Of a stretch of DNA of 51,643 nucleotides, positions 5,144-38,733 are shown one piece after another. Source of the stretch: Candidatus Poseidoniales archaeon (GTDB taxonomy: Archaea > Thermoplasmatota > Poseidoniia > Poseidoniales > Poseidoniaceae); contig JAPOGE010000002.1 in NCBI GenBank assembly GCA_028283345.1, positions 1-51,643 of the forward strand, read 5' to 3'. Positions within the stretch are counted from its first letter, which is position 1. Each line of letters opens with the position of its first letter. The translations under genes and the position numbers were made by a program. Under the pieces are notes generated by a model. That model did not search any database. It saw only the letters and a program-made list of their open reading frames with translations, and was not told the DNA's origin.

Positions 5144-6631
5144 TCAGTCCGTCAATCCTTCTTCACTGCGAGCCTGTTGCTCGCGTGATGTGCGCTGACC
5201 ACCATCGCCACCACGCCCTTCTGCGCCACGACCACGATGGCCACCACCACCGCCACCACCACCGGCTGGCTTGGCCATCTGCACCTTGAGAATTCGACTG
5301 TTGAATTTGAATCCATTCAACTCTACGATAGCGGTCTTTGCGTCGGCCTCGGGCATGGTGACGAATCCGAAGCCCTTCGACTTCCCGGTGCCTCGGTCGG
5401 TAACGACGTGTACGTCGATGACTTCACCGTGATTGCCGAACAGGGTTTTCAAACCTTCATCGGTGGTCTCCCACGGAAGCCCGCCGACATACATTCGTGC
5501 CGAGCCGGGGGGTGCCTCGCGCCGCCCGCCACGACCGCCTTCACGCTGACCGCCTCCGCCACCTCTGTCGCCCTTACCGCGATCTCCCCTACTACCGGAA
5601 TCTGCGTCGTTGACGGTGATTCTGCGCCCACCCAATTCACTTTTGTTGAGGGCGATAATCGCCTTGTCGGCATCTTCATCCGCAGCGAAGGTGACGAAGC
5701 CGAATCCTCGGTTATTACCGGTTTCTCGGTCAACCATGACTATCGCGTCGACCACTTCGCCGTGCTTGGCGAATAGCGCTTGGAGTTGTGGGGTTTCGAT
5801 GCCACGGGCGATTCCACCGACGAATAGTTTGCGACCCTGTGGCCGACCACGGTCACGCCCGCCACCGCCACCACCAGCGCGGCCGCGGCCACCTTCGTCA
5901 CTGAATTTCATCATTACCGGCTTACTTCCATCGTTGCGGTAGTCGGCTGAAATCAGACTACTACGGGCTGCTGCGCCCTTGGCGAAATGCCCCTCCGCCG
6001 CTTTGCCCCAGCGCTTACCGCCACGATTCAGTTCACTCAGACCTTGGCCTTGACCATAGCCCATCCCATAGGCGTCAGCGAGCACCCGAAAGGCCTCGTG
6101 GCCACAGTTTTCACAGCGGACGTTCCAATCTTCACCATCGTCGACAGCACTCAGTACCTCACCACAGTCCGGGCAGATGGCGTGGAGAACCCCACAACCT
6201 TCCTTGCCTCGAATTTCTATCCGGGTTACCGGCTTGGTCTCGGTAACCATGGCGCGGATAATGTCTCTGGAACGCATGGCATCTTTGGCCTGATGCATGT
6301 AGCGGTCGACGATTTTGGTGATGTGCATCTGGCCGCGCAGTTGGTCGGGCAAGAGATTGCGAAAATCCTTTCCTTCCACCTCGATGATATTTGCCTCGAC
6401 CATCGATTCCTTGAGTCGGAATACTTCGGCTATCACAATGTCGCCTTTTTCCAACAGGCGTACACTTTCTCCGGCCGGAGAAACGCTAACGGTAGAAGAT
6501 TCTGAATCGAACTCAACGAACCCGGTGATGACGGCGATGATGTCACCGCCCTGGGAAATCACCCCTTCGCCTTCGCTCCATTCACTGCAGTCTGCTACTT
6601 TATTGCCAGGTATTACCAATTCAGAACTCAT
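5144..6631 (-). CDS. csl4: Exosome cap subunit Csl4 (N-terminal domain, S1, Zn-ribbon) fused to two RRM domains separated by RGG/Gly-rich linkers
   Basis: The track ORF extends to 6811, but a Csl4-like N-terminus starts at ATG 6631 (MSSELVIPGNKV), giving 495 aa. The S1-like segment is GQMHITKIVDRYMHQAKDAMRSRDIIRAMV. The Zn-ribbon is CPDCGEVL...CENCGHE. RRM1 has RNP2 KLFVGGI and RNP1 RGFGFVTF. RRM2 has MYVGGL and KGFGFVTM. There are three RGG/G-rich stretches. Confidence 0.8.
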   Translation of the reverse strand: MSSELVIPGNKVADCSEWSEGEGVISQGGDIIAVITGFVEFDSESSTVSVSPAGESVRLLEKGDIVIAEVFRLKESMVEANIIEVEGKDFRNLLPDQLRGQMHITKIVDRYMHQAKDAMRSRDIIRAMVTETKPVTRIEIRGKEGCGVLHAICPDCGEVLSAVDDGEDWNVRCENCGHEAFRVLADAYGMGYGQGQGLSELNRGGKRWGKAAEGHFAKGAAARSSLISADYRNDGSKPVMMKFSDEGGRGRAGGGGGGRDRGRPQGRKLFVGGIARGIETPQLQALFAKHGEVVDAIVMVDRETGNNRGFGFVTFAADEDADKAIIALNKSELGGRRITVNDADSGSRGDRGKGDRGGGGGQREGGRGGRREAPPGSARMYVGGLPWETTDEGLKTLFGNHGEVIDVHVVTDRGTGKSKGFGFVTMPEADAKTAIVELNGFKFNSRILKVQMAKPAGGGGGGGGHRGRGAEGRGGDGGQRTSREQQARSEEGLTD

Positions 6632-6732
6632 GTTTTCACCAGATGTTTGGAGCGTATCAGGGGGGGGGGATTCCGCTATTGCGGAGTGAATATGAACTCG
6701 TCCGGACGATTGGGGTTGTTGAACCCTTCCCC

Positions 6733-6910
6733 AGTGCGTCCGAAACGAAACAGTGGGATTCCAAGGACGCACCGCGAGGAGCAAGCGCAGAGGAAACTGC
6801 GCTGGAAGCAATTCTGTATCCGGATTCAGCGATACGGGACAAAGAGTTTCAGATGAGCGTCTGCGACTCGCTAAGCAGGTCCGAGCAAGCGAAGAGAATC
6901 AATATTTTTG
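6733..6910 (+). repeat. Extragenic repeat family, copy B
   Basis: AGTGCGTCCGAAacgaaacagtgGGATTCCAAGGACGCACCGCGAGGAGCAAGCG, with arms at 6734-6741 and 6765-6772. CAGATGAGCGTCTGCGACTCGCT lies at about 6849-6872 and GAGCAAGCGAAGAGAATCAATATTTTT at the 3' end. It sits in the divergent csl4/TPR intergenic region. Confidence 0.6.
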
Positions 6911-11720: not shown

Positions 11721-12353
11721 TTATTCCTCTTCGGAAGAAGTTTCGGTATTGTCGTTTGCAACTGAATCGACTGCACCGAGCACATCCCGATCACTATCAA
11801 CGACATCTTCGCCTTCGTGCTCATCGGTTTCATAATCTGCAAATGGATTCCCCCCGGCCTCGAATAAGGACATCAATCGCCAGCGTGGAGCCCAGGTGAG
11901 ATGGACGTACAAAGGCCCGGGAAGGAGCAGAAGTATCCATGGGCCAGAAGATGACAAGGTCAGCAGGTCGGTCAGTTCAAGGGTCATCCAAAAAACTCCG
12001 ACAAAGGGTGTGATGAAGACGACTTTACGCGGCACCTCGATCGGTGGGCGGCGAAAAATCCCGCTCATGCAACGTGAAACCAAACCGAGAAGTGAGGTGG
12101 TGAAAATTAGCAACAGAGCGGTGAAAACCCACGTCATCCACCATGAATTAGCCTCCCAATCGGTCTTGTAGCCAATCGGGAAAATCAGCGCTATCGCCAC
12201 TAATAATCCATAGAATCCACCTATGTAGGCGGGGTGATTTGCCCACAACGGTAATTTCGAAAATCTCTGTGATAGGGTTCCACCCGACAACTTTTCTCGC
12301 TGGGTCACGGGCAGTTCTTTCAGGCGTTCACGCCACTTCTCTCCCGTCGACAC
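11721..12353 (-). CDS. Hypothetical membrane protein with acidic C-terminal tail
   Basis: 210 aa, about four hydrophobic segments and a D/E-rich tail. No recognised motif. Confidence 0.5.
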   Translation of the reverse strand: MSTGEKWRERLKELPVTQREKLSGGTLSQRFSKLPLWANHPAYIGGFYGLLVAIALIFPIGYKTDWEANSWWMTWVFTALLLIFTTSLLGLVSRCMSGIFRRPPIEVPRKVVFITPFVGVFWMTLELTDLLTLSSSGPWILLLLPGPLYVHLTWAPRWRLMSLFEAGGNPFADYETDEHEGEDVVDSDRDVLGAVDSVANDNTETSSEEE

Positions 12354-12412: not shown

Positions 12413-13321
12413 CTAGTCTTCTGGGTCACTGAGCGGGGTCACATCGACATCCCTCGCCTGAGAACGGGTACGCAGAGCCTCGCGCAACCCGCCGCTGAGA
12501 AGGTCGTCTTGGCTCAATATCCCGGGGGTGGTCTTTTCCCATTCCCTCTCAAGTAAGCTGCTGTCACTCTCCTCACGCCCTCTCGCATCTCCAAAGGCAT
12601 CCACGGAGGTACCTCCATTGACGATTTGCGCCTGCATCATCGCCAGATTTATCAACTGTGAAAACCACTGCATGCGACTTATCCTTACTCCGACGACTTC
12701 CCCCCACCTCGTGCAATCGTCGTCACCGGCGACCAACACCCAATTGATGGAGAGCGGATTACGGGCGATTCGCACCGGTACCTCTCCGGGGTTGAACCAC
12801 CCCTTTTCGGGAGTCCACAGCATTACTTCGGCTCTGTCGACCGCCTCGGACGGCCCGACTACTTCAGCTGCACCCAGCTTTCCGAATGCTTTCAATTGCA
12901 TCGTATTTTCTTCGGTTTCGGCGGAATTGTCGGAGTCAGCATTGTCGGAGTGGCCGGAAGGGGCATCCAATCCGGCATCAGCGATTCCTTCAGAGACCGT
13001 AGCCTCCCCCTTGGCTGATGTCTTGAGCGGATCGAGACCGTCAGGGTTCTCATCGGCCCACGGATGAAATTGATTGACCGCCAAAGGTAGCGAAAAGAGA
13101 GATGATGAATCCTTGAAAAAGACGAAATAGATGAATATGACAAAAAACAGTGCGAATAAAAGGGCGAACACTGCCCCTAGCAGTGTTGAAACAATCAATT
13201 CAACTACGCCAAAAGAGAAAAGAAAAATTCCCACCAGATAAATCGCTTTCCGCTTGGCTATCGACCGGCCATGCACGGTCTGGTCAAAGCGGATAAATCC
13301 CGAAGGTGGCGACCCTTCCAT
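12413..13321 (-). CDS. Hypothetical membrane-anchored protein
   Basis: 302 aa with two N-terminal TM helices (LVGIFLFSFGVVELIV, FALLFALFFVIFIYFVFF) and an acidic linker, then a soluble domain of unknown family. Confidence 0.5.
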   Translation of the reverse strand: MEGSPPSGFIRFDQTVHGRSIAKRKAIYLVGIFLFSFGVVELIVSTLLGAVFALLFALFFVIFIYFVFFKDSSSLFSLPLAVNQFHPWADENPDGLDPLKTSAKGEATVSEGIADAGLDAPSGHSDNADSDNSAETEENTMQLKAFGKLGAAEVVGPSEAVDRAEVMLWTPEKGWFNPGEVPVRIARNPLSINWVLVAGDDDCTRWGEVVGVRISRMQWFSQLINLAMMQAQIVNGGTSVDAFGDARGREESDSSLLEREWEKTTPGILSQDDLLSGGLREALRTRSQARDVDVTPLSDPED

Positions 13322-13379: not shown

Positions 13380-13407
13380 CCTATTTCATGGAAATAGGCG
13401 TATAATA
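13380..13407 (+). promoter_or_regulatory. Inverted repeat (CCTATTTC-atg-GAAATAGG) abutting a TATAATA box, upstream of the 13473 operon
   Basis: An 8+8 bp perfect inverted repeat lies at 13380-13398. TATAATA at 13401-13407 follows 2 nt later. A G-rich SD-like GGGGTGGGGTG lies just before ATG 13473. Confidence 0.35.
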
Positions 13408-13472
13408 CCCATTCTCATACATCACGTTCAAATGCGGAAGAGTTCAAACTGAACTAACTGGGGTGGGGTGTC

Positions 13473-15485
13473 ATGGCGGAACTGCCACGTGGGTCAATGC
13501 TTGAGACGCGCCGCGGCGGCCCCGATGTCCTGCGCACCTTGATCAAGGATTTTTTCTCGGAATCTCAAAGTGGCTATATCCGGATTGAGAGGATTCCCAA
13601 AGAACGTCTGCCCCGTATCGGCCAGATCATCATCAGCAATGGTGAGCCATTGTCGGCAATCCATGAGCAGGAGGCAATCCACCTCGGAGTTGATGCGCTA
13701 ATCGAAATCGAAGAGGATGCGATGCATATCGATGCCATTCTCACCATCATCGGCGAGGTCGACATCGCCCATATCGATAGCCAATTCCCCGATGCCCGAT
13801 TGAATATAGAAATGGTTTGGTCAGGAGATTTTCCGGAAGGTGTAGGTGATAGGTGGTGGTTGGAGCGAGAGGTTCGCGAGGCTACGTGGTCGAAAGCCAA
13901 CGAACACATTCTTGCCGAATACGATAACGTGGTCGAAGCGCCGGAATTCATCCAAAGGGCTGCGGCGGTACGACGGGCGAAGATGAAGGGGGAATTATGC
14001 GGTGAACTTACCCCCGGTCAAGTGTTACTTCTCGATGCCAGAGATAATCACAACTCGTTCAGACTTGCGGCCGAACTGGCCTTGCTAGGCCGTCCGGTCT
14101 TGGTGCTGTCGCGACTTCCGAAAGAGCGCTTGGTGGTAGAATTCGGTCTGCCCAGTAATTCCTGCTGGTGGCTGACCGAGCGCCCAGGTGGTATCGATCA
14201 GGCCTGTGGCGCCAGATTGGAGGACATCACTCGTACCATCACCGACTTTCTGTGGGGAAACCTGCGCGCCATAGTGGTTCTCGACGGATTGGAATTCCTC
14301 GCCAGTGTGCACGGGGTTGAGAGAACCTTTGGCTTCTTGCGTCGTCTTGCCGACACCTTCCACGACAGTGATGATGCATTGATGCTTCCGGTCGACCTGC
14401 TGGCGTGGGAGGAAAAAGAACGCCACCTCTTGACTCGAGAGGCCGAGACCGTCGGTAGTGCCCAGGTGGCATTCTGGCTCGAAGATAGTGATGCTTTGGC
14501 CACCCACCCGCTCTGTGCTCCTCCCAGCGATGAGGAGGTGGCGTGGATTGAAGCCGCACTTAAAACCGCAGAGAACGTACGTCAAGCGGCGCAACCAGAT
14601 TCTACGAGCGAAGTGGTAATCGGCGCGGCAAATCGCTTCTCAGCCGGTGATTTCGCGCAAGAATGGCTGCGAGAAGAGGCACCGGTGAACGAGGTGGCAT
14701 CGTCGGATAGTGATGATGAGGACTGGGTGCCAACTTTCCATTCGGCGCAAAGTGGAGAAAGTATTACCGCCGAGGTCCTGGCCACACTCGATGCCGAAGA
14801 AGAGGAAAGGAAAGATGATTTGACCACCATGGGTGACGATGTCGAGGAAGCCGCTCCATCTCAACCGCGCCGCCCGCATCGGTTGGGCAAGCGAAGAGAG
14901 ATTCGTGCAACTGCTACCCAAGAACTCGCCGGCCATGAGCACCGACGTAATGAATTGAGCGCGGCGGCAGAATCTGCTGGCAAGGTTGATGAGACCACCC
15001 TGGAAAGGAAATCTTCACTTCTCGACAACCGTCTGGCTAAGGCCAAGCAGACTTTGGAAGCGATAAGTGTTGCCAGTTCCCAGGCCAGCCAGAGAATAGA
15101 TGGTGCAACTCTCCCGGTTTCAAGTGAAGATGTCGAGCGAGTAAGATATCTCAGTGAGTGGCATCAGGCTGTCGTCGCCGGTAAAGGCAATCGATTCGCC
15201 ATGTTGCCAGAACCGGAAGACGCCCCGAACACTTGGAGCGCGGCGGCGGAAAATGTCCGCCACCCTCTGCACGCAGATGAGGTGGCCAGTGCCGCCGCCA
15301 TCAGCCCCCTCATCTCGCGGCCGGGCGTCGAGGTTGAGATAAGCGACAAGGGGCGAGCCTCGGCTCAGCGTGACCAGAAGGATATGTCGATGGCTGCCGT
15401 CACCCGGAGAATTGCCAGCGCCGATGAAGAACGTTTCACCACCGGAAAAATTGTCACCAACCTTGGAGAATTAGAGGGAGCATGA
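13473..15485 (+). CDS. DUF4388-like + DUF835-like domain protein with long acidic C-terminal region
   Basis: The N-terminus SGYIRIE...IGQIIISNGEPLSAIHEQEAIHLGVDAL fits the DUF4388 pattern. The core VLVLSRLPKERL...NSCWWLTERPG...AIVVLDGLEFLASVHG...LMLPVDLLAWEEKERHLLTREAE fits the archaeal DUF835 pattern (isR.P, WLT, LDGLEYL, closing E-rich helix). Both assignments are from memory of family consensus. Confidence 0.65.
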   Translation: MAELPRGSMLETRRGGPDVLRTLIKDFFSESQSGYIRIERIPKERLPRIGQIIISNGEPLSAIHEQEAIHLGVDALIEIEEDAMHIDAILTIIGEVDIAHIDSQFPDARLNIEMVWSGDFPEGVGDRWWLEREVREATWSKANEHILAEYDNVVEAPEFIQRAAAVRRAKMKGELCGELTPGQVLLLDARDNHNSFRLAAELALLGRPVLVLSRLPKERLVVEFGLPSNSCWWLTERPGGIDQACGARLEDITRTITDFLWGNLRAIVVLDGLEFLASVHGVERTFGFLRRLADTFHDSDDALMLPVDLLAWEEKERHLLTREAETVGSAQVAFWLEDSDALATHPLCAPPSDEEVAWIEAALKTAENVRQAAQPDSTSEVVIGAANRFSAGDFAQEWLREEAPVNEVASSDSDDEDWVPTFHSAQSGESITAEVLATLDAEEEERKDDLTTMGDDVEEAAPSQPRRPHRLGKRREIRATATQELAGHEHRRNELSAAAESAGKVDETTLERKSSLLDNRLAKAKQTLEAISVASSQASQRIDGATLPVSSEDVERVRYLSEWHQAVVAGKGNRFAMLPEPEDAPNTWSAAAENVRHPLHADEVASAAAISPLISRPGVEVEISDKGRASAQRDQKDMSMAAVTRRIASADEERFTTGKIVTNLGELEGA

Positions 15486-17998
15486 TGCGCCGGCGGAGAA
15501 GATTGCAGGCCGCCATTGCCGCCGGCAAGGAGTTTCTCCCCGACGAGGTGAAAGCCGATTCCCCCTCGCGCTTGGCGAGAAAACTCGGAGTTACCCGTAG
15601 TGAGAGAAAAAGAATCTCATTATTGCAACGCACCTCAAGTGACAAACGCACCCCATATACGCGCATCGCCGACCGGGTTCTCGGCTCGGGTCGGGTGCAG
15701 ATGGAGAGACTTATCGAGGTCGATACCGAGGTGGGATCAGAAGGCGTTGGGATGAGCCCATGGATGAGCCAGAGATTCAGTGTCCTCAGAGGGGGAGTGG
15801 CTGAGGTTGATAGTGACGCGGATGAGCAGTGGCTCGGCCATGACAGTCTGGGGCGACCGGTTTGGGAAGACGTGTTGGACCAGCAGCGCAAGCGACTGGG
15901 ATGGTTGCTGAATGAGGAAGATTCGCCGACATTCACAGCTCCGCAATTACCGCCTCTGGAGCAGGTGCTGATCACCCCGGGGGATTGGCCACCGGTACTA
16001 CCTCGCAATGAGGCATTCACCTTCAGGAATTTTCATATCTGTCGCCAGAATGAGCGTTCCGCCCACGCGGTGAATGAAATCCTTGAACAACCTGCAGGGA
16101 AACTCAACCCACTGGTGCTGAGTGGTGAAAGCGGTTGTGGCAAGACCCATCTGCTGTGGGCAACAGGTTGGGCCTTTGCCCGTCAGGAACCCGATAAAGT
16201 CGCTAGAATTCTCTCTTGCACGACCCTCGAAGATGACTTCACCCTACCCAGCAAGTGGAGTGAGAGGTTCGTCGGAACCAGCGTACTGCTAATCGATGAC
16301 ATTCACTTATTGCACGACCGACCCGACACCATGCATGCGATTGGCAAGGTTGTTGATTGGGCGCTTAATCTCGGTCTCCAAGTTGTTTTGACCAGTAAAT
16401 CCGAAGATCGCTACGGAGGGCCCAAAAATCGCCTCTCGCAAGTTCTTCGTCAGTCGGTCAGGGTCAAACTCGACCAGCCGAGCCGGGATAGTCTGATAAT
16501 GATGTTACGCACCCGCTCCGGCGGGCGCGACCTACTGCTCGACGATGATATGCTGATCGCCATAGTCGACCGTAGTGGGCGAGGCTGGGGTGCGGCCAAA
16601 GCCGGCCTTGAGGAATTGGCCATCGCGGTGGAATCGGGAGAGAATCTGGTCGATTCTGACGACGTCATCAGAATCTTGACAGGTCGCTCACCACCTCGGG
16701 AAGAAATAGCCGCGCCGCAACCGGATGACCTTGAGGAACTCGGTGAGGAATTGGCCCGCGAGGTTCTCGACACCGTCTTCGCCGACCCGCTCAATCCTGC
16801 GGTTGATATTCACACCGTATTGCCGGAAATCGGCGCTGACGATTACACCCCTCCCGACCTGATGCCGGAATCTTCGCAGGCGGCGGTGGAATCTGTGGTC
16901 GAGCGTCATGTCGGTGAACTGATGGATAGGAAAAAGGAATATGTCGCCAGCGCCTTGATGCCGCATGAGAGAGACGCCCACCTCGCAGCCAGTCCACCAC
17001 AACTGCCATTTGCAGAGCGGGTCAAGGTTGCGGATGACCTCGCACCGCTTGCACTCAAGACCGATGCCGCGTTCCAACGCTTGGAGGATGACATCGACAA
17101 CCAGCGGCAAAACCTCGCCGATATCGAGGGCGAGTTACAGGCTATCGCATTGCAGGTAGAGGGTGCCGATTCGAAAAATCTCATCTCCCTGGTCGATCAA
17201 TTGCGCCTGGTCGAGGAAAAACTCGCCGAAATCGACCCCGAAGCCATACCCCTCCCAGAATTTGAGGAAGCCAAGCCAAGGCGGCGAGTATTCAAGCGAC
17301 TAGCCCAAATCGGACCCGCTCGATCTGAGACCGAGGGCGGCAGGAAAAAGCGCAAGGTGGTACGTCGAGCCCCTCAACCTGAGACGGGCGATGTGGTGCC
17401 TGAGGTGATCGGGGCTGAACCCGAGGTGAGCAGGAAGCGCAAGGCGGTGCGTCGAGCCGCGCCACCTGAGGTGGCAGAGACTGAAGAAATAGCCGCGCCG
17501 GATACCGTGGATGATAGCCTTGAGATTGCAACAGAGATTCAAGCGGCCTCACCTGTACTCGAAGAGCCGGAAATCCAGGCGGTGGAAAGTCAAGAAGAGG
17601 AAATTCAGGATATTGCACCGGTGGCGGGGGATGAGAAGATTGCACCGACCTCACTTCAGGATGAAATGGCAATGATCGCCTCTGAAATAATAACCGACGC
17701 AGATAAGGTTGAAGCCGACTCGTCACGAAAGAGCGACATCTATGACGACATCCCCACCGACATCTTCCCCGAATCAGTAGCACTACCCGATGTTGGAAGC
17801 ACGGAAACACCAGAGCCGGTGATTCATACCCCAAGCGAAATCCCGACGACTGCCAAGGGGGCGGAAAATCTCACTATATCTGATTCGATGACGACTGCAC
17901 AGGCGCTCGCAAGTCTCACTCCAGCACCGATAATCGAGGTAATCCGACCGACTGTTGCCGAACTCAGGCCGACAGATATACTCGTCCCAGTTGAGTGA
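15482..17998 (+). CDS. Large protein with a DnaA/Hda-like AAA+ domain, lacking recognisable DnaA domain IV; acidic/coiled-coil C-terminal half
   Basis: FTFRNFHICRQNERSAHAV...KLNPLVLSGESGCGKTHLLWATG compares with E. coli DnaA HTFDNFVEG..N...[21 protein letters not shown]. Also present: VLLIDDIHLL (Walker B), LQVVLTSKS (sensor 1), NRLSQVLRQSVRVKLDQPSRDSLIMML (box VII region) and LLLDDDMLIAIVDRS. The ATGA overlap with the upstream ORF is at 15482-15485. Confidence 0.7.
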   Translation: MMRRRRRLQAAIAAGKEFLPDEVKADSPSRLARKLGVTRSERKRISLLQRTSSDKRTPYTRIADRVLGSGRVQMERLIEVDTEVGSEGVGMSPWMSQRFSVLRGGVAEVDSDADEQWLGHDSLGRPVWEDVLDQQRKRLGWLLNEEDSPTFTAPQLPPLEQVLITPGDWPPVLPRNEAFTFRNFHICRQNERSAHAVNEILEQPAGKLNPLVLSGESGCGKTHLLWATGWAFARQEPDKVARILSCTTLEDDFTLPSKWSERFVGTSVLLIDDIHLLHDRPDTMHAIGKVVDWALNLGLQVVLTSKSEDRYGGPKNRLSQVLRQSVRVKLDQPSRDSLIMMLRTRSGGRDLLLDDDMLIAIVDRSGRGWGAAKAGLEELAIAVESGENLVDSDDVIRILTGRSPPREEIAAPQPDDLEELGEELAREVLDTVFADPLNPAVDIHTVLPEIGADDYTPPDLMPESSQAAVESVVERHVGELMDRKKEYVASALMPHERDAHLAASPPQLPFAERVKVADDLAPLALKTDAAFQRLEDDIDNQRQNLADIEGELQAIALQVEGADSKNLISLVDQLRLVEEKLAEIDPEAIPLPEFEEAKPRRRVFKRLAQIGPARSETEGGRKKRKVVRRAPQPETGDVVPEVIGAEPEVSRKRKAVRRAAPPEVAETEEIAAPDTVDDSLEIATEIQAASPVLEEPEIQAVESQEEEIQDIAPVAGDEKIAPTSLQDEMAMIASEIITDADKVEADSSRKSDIYDDIPTDIFPESVALPDVGSTETPEPVIHTPSEIPTTAKGAENLTISDSMTTAQALASLTPAPIIEVIRPTVAELRPTDILVPVE

Positions 17999-18002
17999 TC
18001 CG

Positions 18003-18479
18003 ATGGGCCAGCTTCGGTGGGGTAGACGAAATGACTGGTGGGAATCCGGTATCGAGTTCACCTGCCTTCCCAATTGTGGAAAGTGCTGTGATGAACCCGA
18101 GGGGATAGTCTACCTGAGCCGGGAAGATGCACAGAGATTGGCTGATTTTCACGACCTTGAAGTCGAGCAGTGGTTGCTGAGGGATTGCCGCAAGACCACC
18201 GATGGCAGGTATATCCTGAAGAGTCGCGAGGAAGATGAAATCTGTATCTATCTCGCTGAAGACAAGAGTTGTAATGTGTATTCGGCCAAGCCGGCGCAAT
18301 GCTCGGCATTTCCGTGGTGGTCAGAGAATCTGCGCTCGGAGAGGGCTTGGAAAAAGACTGAGAAATTGTGCCCGGGATTATCGCACGAGGAAGCGATTCA
18401 CATCGACGGTAAGACGATTCGCCTGTGGGTTGAGGCAGACCTGGAGGCGACCATTGGGTTTCGCCGCTGGAAACACTAG
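18003..18479 (+). CDS. YkgJ-family (CxxCxxCC, UPF0153) cysteine-cluster protein
   Basis: CLPNCGKCCDEPEG...CIYL...KSCNVYSAKPAQCSAFPWW. I prefer ATG 18003, which is 4 nt after the upstream stop. The track ORF begins at 17955, inside the upstream gene. Confidence 0.7.
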   Translation: MGQLRWGRRNDWWESGIEFTCLPNCGKCCDEPEGIVYLSREDAQRLADFHDLEVEQWLLRDCRKTTDGRYILKSREEDEICIYLAEDKSCNVYSAKPAQCSAFPWWSENLRSERAWKKTEKLCPGLSHEEAIHIDGKTIRLWVEADLEATIGFRRWKH

Positions 18480-18516
18480 CGCCCGGAAGCCGCAGTATTA
18501 TTTCAGGCGCTTTTTT
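18479..18516 (+). terminator. Weak hairpin followed by T6 after the operon
   Basis: GCGCC...(22-nt loop)...GGCGC, then TTTTTT at 18511-18516, directly after the stop of the YkgJ-like gene. Oligo-T is the main archaeal termination signal. Confidence 0.35.
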
Positions 18517-26186: not shown

Positions 26187-29100
26187 TCATTCCCACCGAT
26201 CATCAGATGGTGGGAGAGTTGGCGCCTCGGGTAATTTTACCGAGCCTGGATTTGTGTATTTCTGTTGTTGACTCCACTTCACTGCACCTCGACCCCCACC
26301 ACCACGGCGGCCTACCAGAAATGCCAGCAGGATGACGAGGAGGAATAGCAGACCGATGGTGAAATTCTGGGCTGTGGATAATCCCCCGGCCGCTCCGGTG
26401 GTTCCCGATAATCCACTTCCGCTGTTCTGACCTGTTGCATTGCCACTCCCTTCTCCGTCACCTGTAGATGAAGGCGAGGCGAGTATGGTGATAGTTCCAT
26501 TCAAGCAATCGGACAAGTTCCCATTGACGGCACAAACTTCCCAATTCTTCTCGCCAACGGAGCCAAAAACCAGACTTAAAGCTGAATCAACGCTGTAATT
26601 CTTTCCTTCAATCAACCACTGAATCTCATCATCAGTATTGGCAGAAGTTGCCCGGAAACCAGCGGTTTCACCGACATATGATTGGTACGGGACGCGTACT
26701 GTTTCTAAACTCGGAGGTGGTTCTTGCTCGGGTACAGGTGGGTATACTCCTTCATCGATGAGGTCGTCGCAATCATCATCGAGGCCATTCCATTTCTCGG
26801 TCGCCCCAGGGTTGATGCTGGCATTGCTATCATCACAGTCTTCGAAGTGATACCAACCATCACCATCGGCATCGGCATCAGCGACCAGTGGGTCGCTGGA
26901 ATAGTACCAGATTTCGGCACCGTCTTCCAAACCATCGCCGTCGGTATCCGGATTTGTCCAGTTGGTACCAAATGTCGAGTATTCGGCCAGGTCTGTCAGG
27001 TTGTCACCATCGCTATCGATGCTTTGGAAATCCTCGTCCAACAGCCCATCGCAATCATCATCGATGCCGTTGAGCAGTTCTTCGGCCCCGGGATGGATAT
27101 TCTCGTCGCTGTCATTACAGTCAGCGAACCAATAGTATCCATCACCATCGCTATCGGCATCGGCGACCAGAGGGTCGGAGCCGTAGAGGTTGACCTCCTC
27201 ACCGTCGAGCAATCCATCATCGTCGGTATCATTGTCCAATGGGTTGGTCGAGTGATTGTGGAACTCGTCGTAATCGCTCAGTTCATCGCCATCTGAATCC
27301 AAGATATCGAAACCCTCGTCGATTATGTTATTGCAATTCTGGTCGATGCCATCGAGTATCTCGACCGCTCCGGGATAGACCGCTGAATTGTCATCATCAC
27401 AATCTGCGAACCAATAGAATCCATCGCTGTCGGCGTCGGCGTCGTACACCATCGGGTCGGTTCCGTAGATGTTTATCTCATCACCATCGGCAAGGCCATC
27501 ATCATCGCTATCGTCATCGAGCGGGTTGGTGCCATAGGTGTTGACCTCATCACCATCAGAGAGGCCATCGAGGTCTGAGTCGGCGGAATTCGGGTCGGTT
27601 CCCCACTCTAGTACCTCTTCGCCGTCGGTCAGCCCATCGTCATCGCTGTCAGGGTCAAACGGGTCGGTATTGTGAACCTCGGTCTCGTTACTATCCCACA
27701 GACCATCACCATCGCTATCGACGATGGCATTGGTGCCGTGCAATGATAGACTCCAATAGTTCAGGGTGCCGGTATCGCCATTTCCCTGGTCGCGCACCTT
27801 GAGAATCCAATCTCCATCACTCATCTCATCCCAATGGGCGGTCGAGGTAAATACCCAATCAGACCAGTCGTTGCCGCTGTCACTATGCTTGACGGCCAAC
27901 TCGGATTCACTACCATAGGGAGAGACCAGGACGACTTCCAAGTCACCGCGGTAGGAGTGGGAGGCATCGAATAATATCTCGACCGATTCAACTTTCATTC
28001 CTTGATTCACGGTATGGGTGAACGTTGTCCAGATATTTGAATTATCAGGAATCGTCTGGCTGACGGTCAGGGTCCCCGAGGTATAGTTGATTTCAGGCTG
28101 GACCATGGTCCACGCCGCCGCAAGGTTGGTGGCGGCGCCGGCATCGATTACCCCGTGGCCATATTGGTGATTGAAATCATGACCGCCTCCATTGGTGAAC
28201 CAGCCGCCGTCGCTGGCGTCGTTGGTGCGGGCCGAGTTGACGAGGATGTGCTGAACATCGCGCCAGGTAAGGTTGGAATTGGCCTCAAGCATCTGGGCGA
28301 TGATACCGGATACCAGCGGGGTCGCACTGGAAGTACCGCCGAAACTATCGGTCCAATCACCATTGGAGTAGCCCCCTGAACCCTCTATATCGGTGGTGGT
28401 GATTCCAGAGGAGCCACCATCTGAGGGGGCGACGATGAGCAGGTTTGCGCCCGGTTCAGAATAGTATGAGCGTTCGCCATCGTCTTCGACAGCTCCTACA
28501 GCGATGGTGAAGCGGGAGTTGGCATATCCATCATAATTCGAATCATCACCATTACTGCCACCGTTGCCGCCGGCGAAGGTGATGATTCCGCCGAGCCCAA
28601 GACGCCCTTCATAGGCCTGTTCTTCAAACGCCGCAGTCATCAGTGGTCCCGGTGTTTCGACCGTATTGCCATCATCGGACGGCCCCCACGAATTCGAGTA
28701 AATATCGACATTGCCCTTCTGGTGCAATAGGGCGCTCGACTCAGTGGAATCGGAAATAGAGCAGGCGATGAGCCTGATGCCGATCAAATCACCATCCATC
28801 GCCGCTCCGGCAACACCGTAATTGTCGTTTCCATAAGCCGCAGCGACACCGGCCGCAGCGGTGCCATGACCATCCCATGTCAACGGATTCGGATTACCGT
28901 CATTTCCACAGTAATCGTAATCGAGACTATCCAGATAATTTGGCGACAGGTCGCCGTGGTCGGTATCGAGACCATCGTCGACGATGGCGATCAATACGCC
29001 GGTACCATCGTAATTATTCCACGCCGCGGTGATATTGACATCCTCGCCCGAGGTGCCGCCGCCTTGACCGGTATTGCGAAGATGCCATTGGTCGCTGAAT

Positions 29101-29405
29101 TTTGTATCGTTGGGAATCAATCTTAGATCATGTTCAAATTCGACCATCGGGTGAAATGCTTCAACCTCATCATTCACCACCAGTGCTGCTTGAGCGCTGG
29201 TACCATCTTTGAAGGTAATAATCCAGGTGTGCTCAAGGATTGTCGATTGCAGCCTTAGTGCCCCCATTTTCTGCACTTTTAGTCGCAGCGCCGTTTCGTC
29301 GATTGAACAATCTCGGCTCGGCATCACCACCAGCCATTCTGTCGATTCGGCTCGCACGACCGAATCGGTAGTCAATTTAGCCTGACGTGAAAACGCAAGT
29401 TGCAC
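26187..29405 (-). CDS. Kexin/subtilisin-like S8 serine protease with P-domain, TSP3/MopE-like Ca-binding repeat array and C-terminal TM anchor
   Basis: The catalytic triad contexts are IAIVDDGLDTDHGDL (Asp), WDGHGTAAAGVAAA (His) and GGTSSATPLVSGIIAQM (Ser). The P-domain reads SYRGDLEVVLVSPYGSESELA...DGDWILKVRD...GTLNYWSLSLHG. Next come DxDxDG / DCDDxxxxxxPGAxE repeats, then the TM segment IGLLFLLVILLAFLV. The main ORF has no signal peptide (see 29372..29608). Confidence 0.85.
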   Translation of the reverse strand: MQLAFSRQAKLTTDSVVRAESTEWLVVMPSRDCSIDETALRLKVQKMGALRLQSTILEHTWIITFKDGTSAQAALVVNDEVEAFHPMVEFEHDLRLIPNDTKFSDQWHLRNTGQGGGTSGEDVNITAAWNNYDGTGVLIAIVDDGLDTDHGDLSPNYLDSLDYDYCGNDGNPNPLTWDGHGTAAAGVAAAYGNDNYGVAGAAMDGDLIGIRLIACSISDSTESSALLHQKGNVDIYSNSWGPSDDGNTVETPGPLMTAAFEEQAYEGRLGLGGIITFAGGNGGSNGDDSNYDGYANSRFTIAVGAVEDDGERSYYSEPGANLLIVAPSDGGSSGITTTDIEGSGGYSNGDWTDSFGGTSSATPLVSGIIAQMLEANSNLTWRDVQHILVNSARTNDASDGGWFTNGGGHDFNHQYGHGVIDAGAATNLAAAWTMVQPEINYTSGTLTVSQTIPDNSNIWTTFTHTVNQGMKVESVEILFDASHSYRGDLEVVLVSPYGSESELAVKHSDSGNDWSDWVFTSTAHWDEMSDGDWILKVRDQGNGDTGTLNYWSLSLHGTNAIVDSDGDGLWDSNETEVHNTDPFDPDSDDDGLTDGEEVLEWGTDPNSADSDLDGLSDGDEVNTYGTNPLDDDSDDDGLADGDEINIYGTDPMVYDADADSDGFYWFADCDDDNSAVYPGAVEILDGIDQNCNNIIDEGFDILDSDGDELSDYDEFHNHSTNPLDNDTDDDGLLDGEEVNLYGSDPLVADADSDGDGYYWFADCNDSDENIHPGAEELLNGIDDDCDGLLDEDFQSIDSDGDNLTDLAEYSTFGTNWTNPDTDGDGLEDGAEIWYYSSDPLVADADADGDGWYHFEDCDDSNASINPGATEKWNGLDDDCDDLIDEGVYPPVPEQEPPPSLETVRVPYQSYVGETAGFRATSANTDDEIQWLIEGKNYSVDSALSLVFGSVGEKNWEVCAVNGNLSDCLNGTITILASPSSTGDGEGSGNATGQNSGSGLSGTTGAAGGLSTAQNFTIGLLFLLVILLAFLVGRRGGGGRGAVKWSQQQKYTNPGSVKLPEAPTLPPSDDRWE
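26750..27719 (-). repeat. Coding repeat array: about three ~85-aa units (TSP type-3-like DxDxDG loops + MopE-like Cys motif)
   Basis: The recurring unit is DSDGDxLxDxxE...TNPxxxDTDxDGLxDGEE...YGSDPLVADADxDGDGxYWFxDCxDSxxxIxPGAxExxNGIDDDCDxxIDE, at residues about 563-885 of the protease. It generates spurious antisense ORFs such as 26724..27296. Confidence 0.75.
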
Positions 29406-34282: not shown

Positions 34283-34394
34283 ATTACCCTCAGAGAAGAG
34301 AAGGGTCTTGCACTTTTCGCAAGAATCGCACGAAATAACCGCCCTCAGAATGATGGGCGGTGGGCTCATCAACCCGAAACCACTGGCCCTGGAC

Positions 34395-37300
34395 ATGACC
34401 GTGGGAGCCAAAGCCTCCGGCAAGGCGGTCGAGAAGACGGCAGCGGGCCGCGGCGGGGTACCACTCCGCATCGTCACCGCGGCAGCGATTTTCGATGGTC
34501 ATGATGCGGCGATTGGGATTTTTCGTCGCATCTTCCAATCTCAGGGGTGTGAAGTCATCCATCTCGGCCATGACCGCGGCGCCGACGAGGTTGCGATGGC
34601 TGCAATTCAAGAAGATGCTCACGCCATCGCAATAACCTCCTATCAGGGTGGAGCAGTCGAGATGTTCACCCATACCAAGAATATCCTCGATGAGCATGGC
34701 TTCGACCACATCTTCCTCTGCGGTGGTGGCGGAGGTACGATTCTACCGGCCGAAATCAAGCACCTTCGTGATGCCGGTATCGCCCGAATCTATTCACCTG
34801 ATGACGGCCGCGACCTAGGTCTGGTGGGGATGGTCGAAGAAGCCATGGCCACCGCGGCGAAGAATGACTTGATGGATCCGCAGAGATTCGTTTTCACTGC
34901 TCCAGTGAATGCCGGCCAACATGGCAAGGTCGCTCGATTACTGACTTTGGCAGAGAATGCCGAAGAAAGCGTGTATCGCGCCGTACTCGACCAGATTCGC
35001 AGTAGTCCGCATGAGAAAACAGCCCCGGTCATTGGTCTCACCGGAACCGGTGGAGCCGGGAAATCTAGTTTGACCGATGAATTGATGTTGCGCATCCAGC
35101 GCGACAATCCCAATTTGAAAATCGCCCTACTGGCTACCGACCCGACCCGCAAGCAAACCGGAGGGGCATTGCTCGGTGACCGAATCCGCATGAATAGCCT
35201 GACCAATGAAAACCTGTACATGCGCTCTTTCGCCAGTCGTGGCTCAGGGCGGGAAATCGCCGATTGCCTCGGCCGGGCAATCGAGGTCTGTCAAACTGTA
35301 GGATTCGACCTGATCATGGTTGAAACCAGCGGCATCGGCCAAGGTGATGATGCCATCACCGAGGTTGCTGACGTATCTTTGTATGTCACGACAAGGGAAT
35401 ATGGGGCACCGAGCCAATTGGAGAAATTGGCGGCACTGGATTATGCCGACCTCATCGTGCTCAACAAATTCGACCGCCCAGGGGCCGAAGATGCATTGCA
35501 GGAGATACGCAAACAGGTGAAGCGCAACCGAGAGTTGTGGGATGCTGATGACGCCTCCCTGCCGGTCATCCCAACCATAGCGAGCCAATTCGCTGATGCC
35601 GGTGTCGACCTGTTGTGGCAGAAATTATCGAATATAATCAACCACCGCCATGCAACCGAATTTGTCGCCGCAGAGGCAATTATGGGCAAGGATGGACTAC
35701 CTGATAGAATCCTACCGATTCCCCCCGAGCGTCAATCCTACCTGGTGGAAATCTCTGCCGCGGTGCGAGATTATCACCAATCTGCCTATTCGACCGCCAA
35801 GAAGGTTCGGCTGGTCCAGCAACTCGAAGCCGCGGCTGAGAGAATGGCCGAGGCCGGCAAGCAGGTGGCGAGCGATGACCTACAGGCAGAAGCCGGAGTG
35901 GTAAGTTCGGAGATAGAACATTCGGTATGGGATGCCATCGCCGACCACAAGGAACGAGAAGTCGCTTACCGTAGTGGCCGAACAACCTACCAGGTGCGTG
36001 GAAAGGATATCACGGTGGAAACCATGACCACGACCCTGTCGGGGACGATCCTGCCGCGCGTGGCCCTACCCAGGAGCGATGACCTCGGGCAGTTGTACGA
36101 ATGGATAGCCAAAGAGAACCTCCCGGGGTTTTTCCCATTTACCGCCGGGGTCTTCCCGTTCAAGCGCGAAGATGAGTTACCGGTGCGCATGTTCGCCGGG
36201 GAGGGTAGTGCCGAGCGTACCAACAAACGCTTCCACTTCCTCTCTCGAGGCCAACCGTTCAACCGCCTATCCACAGCTTTCGATTCCCCCAGCCTCTATG
36301 GGCGTGACCCGGTCAGGCGGCTCGACATCTTCGGCAAGGTCTGCGAGTCGGGGGTCAGTATCTCAACCATAGAGGAAATGGAGAGTCTGTTCAAGGGTTT
36401 TGACCTGTGCAGTGCCAATACCAGTGTCTCAAAGACCATCAATGGTAATTATTGGTGGCATCTGGCGGCTTTCTTCAATGTTGCAATCCGCCAACAGGTT
36501 GCCAAGTTCGTCAAGGAAAGCGGCCGCCAACCCAGCGATGCGGAAAGGGCCGAGATCAAGGCGACCACCCTGTCGACGGTGCGGGGCACGGTTCAGGCCG
36601 ACCAACTGAAGGAGAGCATGGGGCAGAACACCTTGGTATTCAACCTCGACACCGCCCTGAAGATGATGGGTGATGTCGCCGAGTACTATGTCGACAATAA
36701 TATCCGCAACCACTACTTCATCTCGATTTCAGGCTATCACATCGCCGAAGCGGGCGCGAATCCGATCACCCAAGCCGCGTTCACCCTTTCCAATGGACTG
36801 ACCTATGTCGAGTTGTTTCGCGCAAGAGGTCTTGAGCCCGACAAATTCCTGCGCAACTTCAGTTGGTTCTTCTCCAATGGGATGGACCCTGAGTACAGCG
36901 TTATTGGGCGGGTGGCACGGCGGATTTGGGCGATAGCGATGCGCGATATATACGGCGTGGGCAAGCGCGGCCAGCAACTGAAGTATCACATTCAGAGTAG
37001 CGGCCGGTCGCTGCATGCCCAAGAATTCACCTGGAATGATTATCGCACCACCCTGCAGGCATTATATGCATTACAGGATAACGCCAACTCACTGCATACC
37101 AACTCCCGTGACGAAGCATTCGGCACACCGACCGAGGAAACCGTGCGCGATAGTATGGCGATCCAACTCATCTTGGCGCGAGAATACGGCTGGCTGAAGA
37201 ATGAGAATCCTCTACAAGGCTCATTCATGGTCGAATGGTTGACCGATAATGTCGAGCAACAGATTCTACAGATATTTGATGAAATGAACAGTCGAGGAGG

Positions 37301-37700
37301 GGTGCTGGGTAGTCTAGAGGTGAATTATCAGCGCAATCGAATCCAAGATGAATCGATGCTCTATGAGCATATGAAGCACGATGGCAGCCTTCCCATAATC
37401 GGCGTCAACACCTTCATCGACCCAGAGGCAAATGTGCTCAGCGCCGACCGCGCTGATGAATTCGATATCGCGGTGACACGCTCTGACAAGGTTGAGAAAA
37501 ATTTGGTTATCGAGCGTAACACGGCCTTCAAGGAGACCAATTCCGAGGCCGCAGAGGCTGGCCTTGCACGCCTCAAGGAGGCGGCTAGAAACGGCGACAA
37601 TCTGTTCGCTGTGCTGATGGATATCGTCGAATTCTGTAGTGTGGGTCAGGTCACGGAGGCGCTGTTTGAGGTCGGTGGTAAATTCAGAAGGAATATGTAG
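34395..37700 (+). CDS. icmF: Fused isobutyryl-CoA mutase IcmF (B12-binding domain + MeaB-like GTPase + mutase TIM barrel)
   Basis: RIVTAAAIFDGHDAAIGIFRRIFQSQGCEVIHLGHDR is the B12 domain with DxHxxG-type context. GLTGTGGAGKSSLTDEL, VETSGIGQGD and VLNKFD are the G1, G3 and G4 motifs. FPFTAGVFPFKRE...RMFAGEG and a roughly 550-aa mutase domain follow. The start is uncertain among TTG 34308, ATG 34350 and ATG 34395. Confidence 0.85.
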   Translation: MTVGAKASGKAVEKTAAGRGGVPLRIVTAAAIFDGHDAAIGIFRRIFQSQGCEVIHLGHDRGADEVAMAAIQEDAHAIAITSYQGGAVEMFTHTKNILDEHGFDHIFLCGGGGGTILPAEIKHLRDAGIARIYSPDDGRDLGLVGMVEEAMATAAKNDLMDPQRFVFTAPVNAGQHGKVARLLTLAENAEESVYRAVLDQIRSSPHEKTAPVIGLTGTGGAGKSSLTDELMLRIQRDNPNLKIALLATDPTRKQTGGALLGDRIRMNSLTNENLYMRSFASRGSGREIADCLGRAIEVCQTVGFDLIMVETSGIGQGDDAITEVADVSLYVTTREYGAPSQLEKLAALDYADLIVLNKFDRPGAEDALQEIRKQVKRNRELWDADDASLPVIPTIASQFADAGVDLLWQKLSNIINHRHATEFVAAEAIMGKDGLPDRILPIPPERQSYLVEISAAVRDYHQSAYSTAKKVRLVQQLEAAAERMAEAGKQVASDDLQAEAGVVSSEIEHSVWDAIADHKEREVAYRSGRTTYQVRGKDITVETMTTTLSGTILPRVALPRSDDLGQLYEWIAKENLPGFFPFTAGVFPFKREDELPVRMFAGEGSAERTNKRFHFLSRGQPFNRLSTAFDSPSLYGRDPVRRLDIFGKVCESGVSISTIEEMESLFKGFDLCSANTSVSKTINGNYWWHLAAFFNVAIRQQVAKFVKESGRQPSDAERAEIKATTLSTVRGTVQADQLKESMGQNTLVFNLDTALKMMGDVAEYYVDNNIRNHYFISISGYHIAEAGANPITQAAFTLSNGLTYVELFRARGLEPDKFLRNFSWFFSNGMDPEYSVIGRVARRIWAIAMRDIYGVGKRGQQLKYHIQSSGRSLHAQEFTWNDYRTTLQALYALQDNANSLHTNSRDEAFGTPTEETVRDSMAIQLILAREYGWLKNENPLQGSFMVEWLTDNVEQQILQIFDEMNSRGGVLGSLEVNYQRNRIQDESMLYEHMKHDGSLPIIGVNTFIDPEANVLSADRADEFDIAVTRSDKVEKNLVIERNTAFKETNSEAAEAGLARLKEAARNGDNLFAVLMDIVEFCSVGQVTEALFEVGGKFRRNM

Positions 37701-37849
37701 GAAACACCGAAAAAACCCGTTGGCATCACTCCACCCTGCCCCATTTTTTGGGCAAATCTATTCGTATCGTTCATATCTCAGGGTTCAACTGGTTTTTCCG
37801 TACTCCCTATTCCCCCGAAGGCCGAAAGTTGAAGCGATTCTCAGTGGCC

Positions 37850-37991
37850 TTCACTATTGTCCGTCGACGAACTTGCTGAACCGGAATCTCTCATGATAAA
37901 AGTTCAGGACACCGCTTGCTAATGAGTATGGCCTCGACTTTTGCACTCGCGATTCTTCTCGGACGACATAGTGCTGTTTCACTATTGTCCG
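37850..37991 (+). repeat. Imperfect direct duplication in the icmF/MIP intergenic region
   Basis: TTCACTATTGTCCG occurs at 37850-37863 and 37978-37991, 128 bp apart. Each copy is preceded by GCGATTCT (at about 37835 and 37949). On the minus strand the second copy forms CGGAC-a-ATAGTG-aaacag-CACTAT-gtc-GTCCG. Confidence 0.5.
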
Positions 37992-38002
37992 CTCGCCCTC
38001 AC

Positions 38003-38039
38003 AAAAAAAAAACCCGACCCGGGCGCACCCGGGCCGGGG
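38003..38039 (-). terminator. GC-rich hairpin followed by T10 (minus strand), downstream of the MIP channel gene
   Basis: The minus strand reads CCCCGGCCCGGG-tgcg-CCCGGGTCGGG, then TTTTTTTTTT (A10 at 38003-12 on the plus strand). It lies 59 nt after the stop at 38098. Confidence 0.6.
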
Positions 38040-38097
38040 AAATTCCGCGCACTCAGACCTTTGGGCCAGGTACGGATTTAGACTAATCTTGTTCGGA

Positions 38098-38733
38098 TTA
38101 CTCTTCTGAATAACTCTTATCTTCGCCTTCTCCCATTATTTCATCCCACATCCAAAAGGCCATGAGTGAACCAAGAGCAGTTGCTAACCAGAACATCCAG
38201 AAGGTCGAAAAGTCGAGTGATGTGTTTAAGATACTGGCAGCGAAGTGAGGTGCTGCGTTCATCGTCACATCGGTCGCTTCAATCATCAACCAACTGAAGG
38301 CACCAACAACCATTCCTCCAAAACCATCGACGGTTCCTTCTCCGACAGTGGCATTCCAGACAATCGTGAAAAACAGCATCGCTATCATCATTCCCGCAAT
38401 GTCCAACCAGATGGCGTCCGCAGCCGTGTTGGTCGGCGTCAGTACCTGGCCCCCGTACACGTGCGCGAAGATGAGTAGCCCACCAAATGCACCCGCTAGT
38501 TGAGCACCTAGGTACTTGAGGCCATCCTCAACTTCCATCTTTTGCATAGCCATCTGGGCAATTGTGATCGCCGGGTTCAAATGAGCGCCTGAGACACCCA
38601 TAGCTAGCGTAGTCATCAGACCAAGGGCAATACCCGTAAGCATTGCAGACTCAGTCGTGCTCGCAATTAGAACCACGACCATCACGCCGAGCATCTCGGC
38701 ACCCAATGTTCGCATATCTTCTTCCATTCCCAT
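38098..38733 (-). CDS. MIP/aquaporin-family channel with degenerate second NPA box
   Basis: SGAHLNPAITIA is a canonical first NPA box, with six hydrophobic segments in 211 aa. The position of the second NPA reads TMNAAPHFAAS. Confidence 0.6.
   Translation of the reverse strand: MGMEEDMRTLGAEMLGVMVVVLIASTTESAMLTGIALGLMTTLAMGVSGAHLNPAITIAQMAMQKMEVEDGLKYLGAQLAGAFGGLLIFAHVYGGQVLTPTNTAADAIWLDIAGMMIAMLFFTIVWNATVGEGTVDGFGGMVVGAFSWLMIEATDVTMNAAPHFAASILNTSLDFSTFWMFWLATALGSLMAFWMWDEIMGEGEDKSYSEE

Follow-up and report, generated by a model that had tools for sequence, protein, structure and literature searches.

A translationally coupled pair of an inactivated KaiC protein and a degenerate DnaA-clade AAA+ protein in Poseidoniales archaea

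What would an archaeon do with a DnaA-type ATPase? The AAA+ branch that holds DnaA and Hda counts as a hallmark of bacteria, replication in archaea being initiated by Orc1/Cdc6. The question is raised by a stretch of 51,643 nt from a Candidatus Poseidoniales archaeon (GCA_028283345.1, contig JAPOGE010000002.1, positions 1-51,643 of the forward strand; hereafter the window), in which a first-pass annotation, made from the sequence alone, had drawn attention to three co-directional open reading frames (ORFs): one for a DUF835-like protein (ORF1), one for a DnaA/Hda-like AAA+ protein (ORF2) and one for a YkgJ-type Cys-cluster protein (ORF3). The first two were said to be joined by an ATGA start/stop overlap and the last two to be parted by a 4-nt spacer, and both junctions, like the three ORFs themselves, are found in the sequence as described (Table 1). 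In this work we show that Poseidoniales carry a conserved, translationally coupled pair, which consists of an inactivated KaiC (iKaiC) protein and of a DnaA-clade AAA+ protein without domain IV, arginine finger or initiator-specific motif (ISM). The host is indeed archaeal, since the carriers identified in a scan of GTDB species genomes are labelled Candidatus Poseidoniales or unclassified euryarchaeal metagenome-assembled genomes.

The likeness of ORF2 to DnaA domain III, first drawn by eye, is supported by profile hidden Markov models, by sequence search of the PDB and by fold comparison, and the order of the DnaA blocks is kept. Residues 176-307 match the Pfam family Bac_DnaA (PF00308; E = 2.9e-16, 60.5 bits against a gathering cut-off of 23), a threshold also passed by the sequences P0013 and P0014 and by the orthologue of locus L016, and residues 176-363 match positions 105-299 of the 437 in the DnaA model TIGR00362 (E = 1.6e-22, 80.2 bits). 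The latter score lies below the equivalog cut-off of that model (343.9 bits), as do those against the Hda model TIGR03420 (46.4 versus 194.8 bits) and the IstB model NF038214 (20.3 versus 200 bits), and the Orc1/Cdc6 models give no match at E<=1. Searching the PDB with the profile of the ORF2 family returns DnaA chains only (E = 2e-20). In structural comparison, the model of the AAA+ module is closest to T. maritima DnaA domain III (2z4r; template-modelling (TM) score 0.84, root-mean-square deviation 3.2 A), followed by B. subtilis DnaA (8bv3; TM 0.78) and Hda (3bos; TM 0.72), with no Orc1/Cdc6 or ORC structure in the 50 best matches, which are led by DnaA and Hda. The ATPase is, as had been proposed, of the DnaA/Hda clade, being neither Orc1/Cdc6 nor IstB.

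The absence of domain IV from ORF2 also proved correct. The alignment with the DnaA profile stops short of domain IV, Pfam recognised neither a DnaA C-terminal domain nor any other DNA-binding domain, and past the AAA+ module no part of the protein resembled DnaA structures. Outside this module and a coiled coil, the protein is of low confidence or disordered in the model, yet contains short motifs that are invariant in the family alignment, and such anatomy (i.e., an AAA+ core, disordered acidic sequence and invariant short motifs) is that of hub or scaffold proteins. The duplicated basic motif of the first-pass annotation does exist in the tail; close orthologues differ in how many copies of its RK(K)RK-VRRA-PQPE repeat they have (P0002 and P0005 have additional ones) and distant orthologues lack the motif, so that it is lineage-specific low complexity rather than a feature of the family.

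The partner, ORF1, has the DUF835 core that had been ascribed to it: residues 198-323 match PF05763 (E = 1.5e-16, 60.8 bits against a gathering cut-off of 33.1), and DUF835 was matched in all 20 of the 20 homologues tested. The AlphaFold2 model is confident (predicted local distance difference test 80-89) only at residues ~180-345, and Foldseek aligns the model with Rad51/KaiC/FlaH/RecA structures (E = 3e-5 to 1e-3), whilst the P-loop position reads DARDNHNS, with no GKT. Both the fold match and the missing P-loop agree with the literature, where DUF835 has been classed as an inactivated KaiC that serves as an output domain and is listed in 36 archaeal response regulators (Galperin et al. 2018, PMC5847659), and the family is therefore not wholly uncharacterised, as it had been called. 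The common ground between ORF1 and these regulators is the Pfam family, the RecA-like fold without P-loop and the archaeal distribution; unlike them, ORF1 has no REC or PAS domain, and carries instead a family-specific N-terminal domain and an acidic tail of 325 aa. This tail, put earlier at about 300 acidic residues, has a net charge of -25 and, bar a few predicted helices, mostly low model confidence. As a whole, ORF1 and ORF2 are both strongly acidic (net charges of -49 and -54). No description of DUF835 paired with a DnaA-type AAA+ protein was found in literature searches.

Is the nucleotide site of ORF2 in working order? Starting from E. coli DnaA, the ATPase positions were traced through alignments and scored over 36 archaeal representatives of the family, with K178 as the Walker A Lys, V211 as a contact to single-stranded DNA (ssDNA), R245 as the B-motif, R285 as the arginine finger and R334 as the sensor-2 Arg, roles known, like that of R281, from the DnaA literature. 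The arginine finger column has no Arg in any of the 36 (V in 12, L in 10, I in 7, A in 3, F in 2 and M in 1), and the ISM segment with V211 is deleted in 35 of them, the model showing a predicted helix of only four residues between beta2 and beta3 in this region. The B-motif column is not conserved, and sensor-2 retains its Arg in 19/36. The Walker A Lys is replaced in 11/36 (K in 25, R in 6 as in E. coli Hda, C in 3 and T in 2), whilst the first Walker B Asp (D235) reads D in 32 and E in 4, the second (D236) D in 33, G in 2 and N in 1, and the R281 equivalent R in 20 and K in 5. In the window's own ORF2, where the arginine finger and sensor-2 had been described as hard to align, both residues are in fact absent, their positions being taken by V321 and G370, with Walker A (GKT), Walker B (DD) and the R281 equivalent (R317) intact. 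By comparison, canonical DnaA and both modules of tandem bacterial proteins (see below) keep the ATPase residues in the large majority of sequences. Given the loss of the arginine finger and of the ISM contacts, the ORF2 family can neither activate the ATP of a neighbour in the way of DnaA and Hda nor contact ssDNA as DnaA does and, judging from the alignment columns, nucleotide binding has probably been wholly lost in a minority of its lineages. The earlier suggestion of a nucleotide-switch module becomes doubtful in view of a DUF835 domain without P-loop, an arginine finger that is never present and a Walker A Lys that is missing from 11 of the representatives.

A way around these losses would be an active composite ATPase, in which ORF2 hydrolyses ATP with an arginine supplied in trans by ORF1 (e.g., the invariant R207, R214 or R322 of its DUF835 domain) or with a shifted residue of its own. 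Walker A, Walker B and the sensor-1 Thr are intact in most family members, there are invariant arginines on the DUF835 side to choose from, and the tight translational coupling suggests obligate stoichiometry. Against this, Cys or Thr replaces the Walker A Lys in five of the 36 representatives and Walker B is altered in four, R324 of ORF2 is not conserved, and we know of no precedent for a composite site between a RecA fold and an AAA+ module, all of which makes this a quite improbable solution.

Conservation of the arrangement was examined in the related loci L001-L006 and L012-L018, all on Poseidoniales-type contigs. The DUF835 gene lies directly 5′ of the DnaA-like gene, with an overlap of 1-8 nt, in 12/12 related loci, and the overlap persists down to ORF2 orthologues of ~30% identity. 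ORF1 and ORF2 are thus made in fixed proportion through translational coupling. An exhaustive search with the ORF2 profile gave 57 representatives at E<1e-30, of which ~36 are full-length and archaeal-type at 50% clustering, and the family is confined to Poseidoniales-type contigs in the searches run. The third gene behaves differently. ORF3 is the Cys-cluster protein it was taken for (Pfam CxxCxxCC, PF03692; E = 4.4e-8, 34.1 bits against a cut-off of 23), and its counterpart, adjacent to the pair in most loci, is co-directional in L001, L005, L017 and L018, where it starts 5-28 nt after the ORF2 stop, but lies on the opposite strand in L003/L004 (one lineage). Being inverted in one lineage, it is a neighbour and not an obligate member, and its adjacency carries little weight because synteny in most loci extends over the entire neighbourhood, as far as citrate synthase, GDPD and TatC (the outer flanks are rearranged in L001). 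Of the conserved trio envisaged in the first-pass annotation, the ORF1-ORF2 link stands and that to ORF3 falls, even if ORF3 is probably co-transcribed with the pair in this genome.

General synteny could be invoked against the pair as well, by supposing that the two genes form no functional unit and are adjacent merely through frozen gene order across Poseidoniales; after all, most loci share the gene order of the whole block that runs from the two upstream membrane proteins to TatC. The overlap, however, is retained in every one of the 12 loci despite the divergence of the proteins and the rearranged outer flanks of L001, neither family was found outside the lineage in the searches run, and both genes are present together in every locus examined. 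We regard frozen order as a highly improbable explanation. Two other sources for the pair were tried and rejected: a mobile element (no relative in IMG/VR, and a sole, weak DnaC-like match in PHROG, E = 2e-4) and a defence system (only two sub-threshold PbeC fragments from PADLOC, E = 0.004-0.005).

The interpretation that we prefer, and to which we give a probability of about 50%, is that the pair forms a lineage-specific complex of two degenerate NTPase folds, serving as a scaffold or slow switch and not as a replication initiator. ORF1 would contribute a P-loop-less KaiC/RecA-like domain behind its family-specific N-terminal domain, and ORF2 an AAA+ module descended from the DnaA/Hda clade with loss of domain IV, of the trans-acting arginine finger and of most of the ISM. 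We infer a physical interaction between the two, which may run through the Trp/Pro-rich N-terminal region of ORF2 and the short conserved motifs, and the resulting complex might then act as a scaffold or as a slow conformational switch, with ATP or ADP as a bound ligand rather than as fuel wherever Walker A and B are intact, as in the window. Whatever its task, the assembly is neither a DnaA-type origin-melting filament nor an Hda-type stimulator of hydrolysis.

Several observations weigh against this interpretation. The intact Walker A, Walker B and R317 of the window's ORF2 make hydrolysis with an arginine from elsewhere possible, and retention of the sensor-2 Arg in about half of the representatives points to some selection at the nucleotide site. 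That the genes are so strongly conserved throughout the order implies a specific function, which the word ‘scaffold’ does not name. Moreover, the phylogenetic placement is weak: in a neighbour-joining (NJ) tree with 200 bootstraps, the archaeal sequences fall outside DnaA, the tandem proteins and Hda in only 60%, and are monophyletic in 38%.

Nothing was found in the literature on the ORF1/ORF2 pair or on a DnaA-type protein in Poseidoniales. We are dealing with an undescribed pair whose ATPase represents a new, degenerate subfamily within the DnaA/Hda clade, novel in its architecture, its host domain and its partner alike. A globally abundant marine archaeal order retains a DnaA-derived module, stripped of its DNA-binding and trans-activating parts and coupled to an inactivated KaiC-like protein, which makes the pair an example of a replication ATPase exapted after loss of catalysis. 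In addition, DUF835 gains its first conserved partner, and two genes conserved across the order are marked in organisms so far uncultured.

Descent from the DnaA/Hda clade keeps a link to replication in sight. A domesticated DnaA module with a RecA-fold partner could modulate Orc1/Cdc6, MCM or another DNA transaction, like Hda, DnaC or YabA, and should the pair truly act on the chromosome, an archaeal replication system would contain an element of bacterial type. The R281 equivalent is R or K in 25/36, the N-terminal region of ORF2 is basic and both proteins have basic patches, some members have the GRS Walker A of E. coli Hda and, as a weak point, PCNA is encoded 28 kb from the pair in the window. 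On the other hand, no DNA-binding domain is detected in ORF2, the ssDNA-contact motifs and the arginine finger that Hda needs are both lost, and inspection by eye of both ends of the ORF2 family alignment reveals no Hda-type clamp-binding or PIP-like motif. The locus does not look like an origin either, a proximity which had been raised as a point to check and which we reject: the scanned ORFs of the window include no Orc1/Cdc6, the pair is flanked by intergenic spacers of 151-174 nt, the GC skew does not switch at the locus, and within 8 kb the related loci inspected show neither Orc1/Cdc6 nor a long AT-rich spacer nor a skew switch. On balance a role as replication or chromosome regulator seems unlikely. 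More doubtful still is a bolder version, in which a bacterial DnaA ATPase module, acquired by a forebear of Poseidoniales, was remodelled together with a dead KaiC-like partner into a new control layer of chromosome replication or segregation beside Orc1/Cdc6, helicase-loader-like or Hda-like, with a composite or ligand-only site.

A role at the end of a signalling pathway would involve the N-terminus of ORF1, which had been called DUF4388-like. ORF1 would then be a receiver or adaptor through this domain, with DUF835 as output as in the REC-DUF835 regulators, and ORF2 the effector. DUF835 is listed as an output domain (PMC5847659), the predicted alpha-beta-beta-beta-alpha order of the N-terminal model is compatible with a PATAN (DUF4388) domain without proving it, an hhalign alignment with PATAN falls in the expected register, as drawn by eye, and two conserved membrane proteins are encoded divergently, directly upstream, in the five loci compared. 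PATAN similarity is, however, not significant by any route: PF14332 has no match at E<=10 in any of 20 ORF1 family members, hhalign against four genuine PATAN domains gives a probability of 1.8%, and of 3.4% (P = 0.013) when the PATAN helical insert is removed (P = 0.013-0.028 over the runs with and without insert), and a database profile search with the N-terminal domain returns only fragments of the same family, none of which carries PF14332. No REC, kinase, Che or GTPase gene lies in the neighbourhood, and the link of ORF2 to PATAN/MglA/Che operons of Gemmatimonadota is an artefact of summing the scores of two domains (see below). We therefore reject the DUF4388/PATAN assignment and treat the domain as family-specific; register and secondary-structure order would still allow a remote relationship, and a signalling output is in our view an unlikely function for the pair. 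The same domain also appears as short stand-alone proteins of 72-135 aa (P0314, P0320, P0336 and P0344, on contigs of 0.7-1.25 Mb), which are most likely frameshifted gene calls in long-read assemblies and not true single-domain genes.

Table 1. Features of the ORF1/ORF2 pair and its immediate surroundings (nucleotide positions refer to the window).
Feature	Nucleotides	Strand	Residues	Description
Inverted repeat CCTATTTC-ATG-GAAATAGG	13380-13387/13391-13398			perfect, 8+8 nt; 5′ of the pair
TATA-like GTATAATA	13401-13408	+		adjoins inverted repeat
CATCACGTTCAAATG element	13420-13434	+		15 nt; 38 nt (~40 nt) before ORF1 ATG
ORF1	13473-15485	+	670 aa	DUF835 protein
ORF1 N-terminal domain			1-~115	family-specific; followed by WW linker
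ORF1 DUF835/RecA-like domain	14010-14507		~180-345	
ORF1 tail			346-670	mostly disordered, acidic; conserved basic patch P465 R466
ORF1/ORF2 overlap	15482-15485			ATGA
ORF2	15482-17998	+	838 aa	DnaA-type AAA+ protein
ORF2 N-terminal region			1-175	basic, Trp/Pro-rich, isoelectric point 9.2
ORF2 AAA+ module	16007-16681		176-400	DnaA-type
ORF2 conserved linear motifs				VLDTVFADPLNP, DDYTPPDLMP, IDPEALPLPEF
ORF2 coiled coil	17009-17230		510-583	
ORF2 basic motif RK(K)RK-x-VRRA	17342-17458	+		two copies: RKKRKVVRRA (nt 17342), RKRKAVRRA (nt 17432)
ORF2 C-terminal peptide			812-838	conserved, LxPxPI...ILVPVE; preceded by variable tail
ORF2-ORF3 spacer	17999-18002			4 nt
ORF3	18003-18479	+	158 aa	CxxCxxCC (YkgJ-type) protein
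Hairpin + T6	18478-18488/18501-18511, T6 18511-18516	+		imperfect; 11-nt arms, 82% complementary, 12-nt loop

The bounds of the unit were given by the first-pass annotation as an inverted repeat next to a TATA box upstream and a hairpin with a T-run downstream, and both are present (Table 1). The inverted repeat, a candidate operator of the pair, is kept in the window and in its closer relatives L005, L012 and L013, and not in the more distant L001 and L014. The TATA-like GTATAATA is weakly conserved, reading GGATAATC and GTATTATA in relatives and being absent in L001/L014. The top-conserved upstream block of six aligned orthologous regions is another element, CATCAYGTTCAAATG, at positions 13420-13434, which varies only at its Y and R positions in regions whose proteins are only 42-78% identical. 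As far as sequence conservation can tell, this element is a better candidate for the promoter than the TATA-like box, and it is likely to be the core promoter or the site of a regulator. The hairpin is likely to mark the end of the transcript; a generic bacterial-type terminator scan did not flag it, because its 12-nt loop is too long for the rule of the scan.

Divergently from ORF1, on its 5′ side, the window encodes two membrane proteins without Pfam family (11721-12353 and 12413-13321, both on the minus strand), which are held at that position in L001, L003, L017 and L018 as well, even with the outer flank of L001 rearranged, and which may belong with the pair. The flanking genes of the window are archaeal housekeeping genes, including those for a CTP-dependent riboflavin kinase, a tRNA pseudouridine synthase, citrate synthase and PCNA. 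Elsewhere in the window, a 555-aa protein (5144-6811, minus strand) joins the N-terminal region of exosome Rrp4 to two strong RRM_1 domains (E = 1.4e-39), RRM domains being uncommon in archaea. A 1072-aa subtilase with P-domain, bacterial TSP3 repeats and MopE-type metal-binding repeats (26187-29405, minus strand) is probably a secreted protease, and a single IcmF-like ORF of 1130 aa (34308-37700, plus strand) fuses a B12-binding domain, a MeaB GTPase and a methylmalonyl-CoA mutase domain. The G+C content drops to ~0.50, from a background of 0.53-0.57, at 37000-40000, where an aquaporin (MIP) and a 588-aa AAA protein that weakly matches KaiC are encoded, and this stretch includes an intergenic spacer of 427 nt (38734-39160).

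Amongst known systems, bacterial DnaA domain III is the closest to ORF2, with which it has in common the initiator-clade AAA+ fold, the order of the motifs, the Walker A GKT/S-HLL, the Walker B DD, the sensor-1 Thr and the R281 equivalent. Unlike bacterial DnaA, ORF2 has no domains I/II or IV, the ISM is shortened and the sensor-2 Arg is lost in the window's subclade, whilst the host is archaeal and the module is extended by 175 aa at the N-terminal and ~440 aa at the C-terminal side. Hda is a DnaA paralogue that inactivates DnaA, and requires its arginine finger to do so. Hda/HdaA and ORF2 are both DnaA-clade AAA+ proteins without DNA-binding domain and with a short ISM, and the GRS Walker A recurs in some archaeal members; nevertheless, the arginine finger, present in the aligned E. 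coli Hda sequence, is absent from ORF2, Hda is a protein of ~230 aa with an N-terminal clamp-binding motif, unlike ORF2, and in the NJ tree Hda groups with DnaA and not with the archaeal family.

The best non-archaeal matches of ORF2 are Gemmatimonadota proteins of ~650 aa named ‘DnaA/Hda family’. On two Gemmatimonadota contigs (L007:2657-13716 and L008:2578-13323), tandem proteins of ~630-655 aa, which combine two DnaA-type AAA+ modules and lack domain IV, are encoded in an operon of the order DUF4388(PATAN)-TPR, TPR-Roadblock, Roadblock, Roadblock-like, Arf-MglA-like GTPase, tandem-DnaA, DUF4388-TPR, CheR, CheD, CheB and CheW, which looks like a DnaA-derived ATPase recruited to a signalling module of polarity or chemotaxis type; no literature was found on PATAN domains together with DnaA. 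ORF2 and the tandem proteins have in common domain III modules without domain IV and a non-replicative gene context, and differ in that the latter have two modules per protein, keep arginine finger and sensor-2, and are nested in bacterial DnaA in the NJ tree. A special kinship between them, which at first sight would have revived the DUF4388 idea, was considered and rejected, their high rank being an artefact of summed domain scores: per domain, the tandem proteins score 45-89 bits against the archaeal AAA+ profile, less than the 90-105 bits of canonical DnaA. Orc1/Cdc6 and the ‘DnaA-like’ ATPases that archaeal viruses encode (SSV type, arCOG07960; PMC4158269) are likewise AAA+ proteins found in archaea, and are linked to replication; ORF2 is set apart from both.

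There remains the comparison with DnaC/DnaI and DnaB, where a DnaA-clade AAA+ protein likewise has a partner of the RecA/KaiC superfamily, in our case encoded next to it, and where the geometry of the complex could plausibly be similar. E. coli DnaC scores 12.6 bits against the ORF2 family model and, unlike DnaC and DnaB, both partners are without catalytic residues here, ORF1 having no helicase motifs. By analogy only, the nearest mechanistic parallel to the Poseidoniales pair is that of an initiator-clade AAA+ adaptor sitting on a RecA-fold oligomer, as DnaC does on DnaB, with both catalytic centres decayed.

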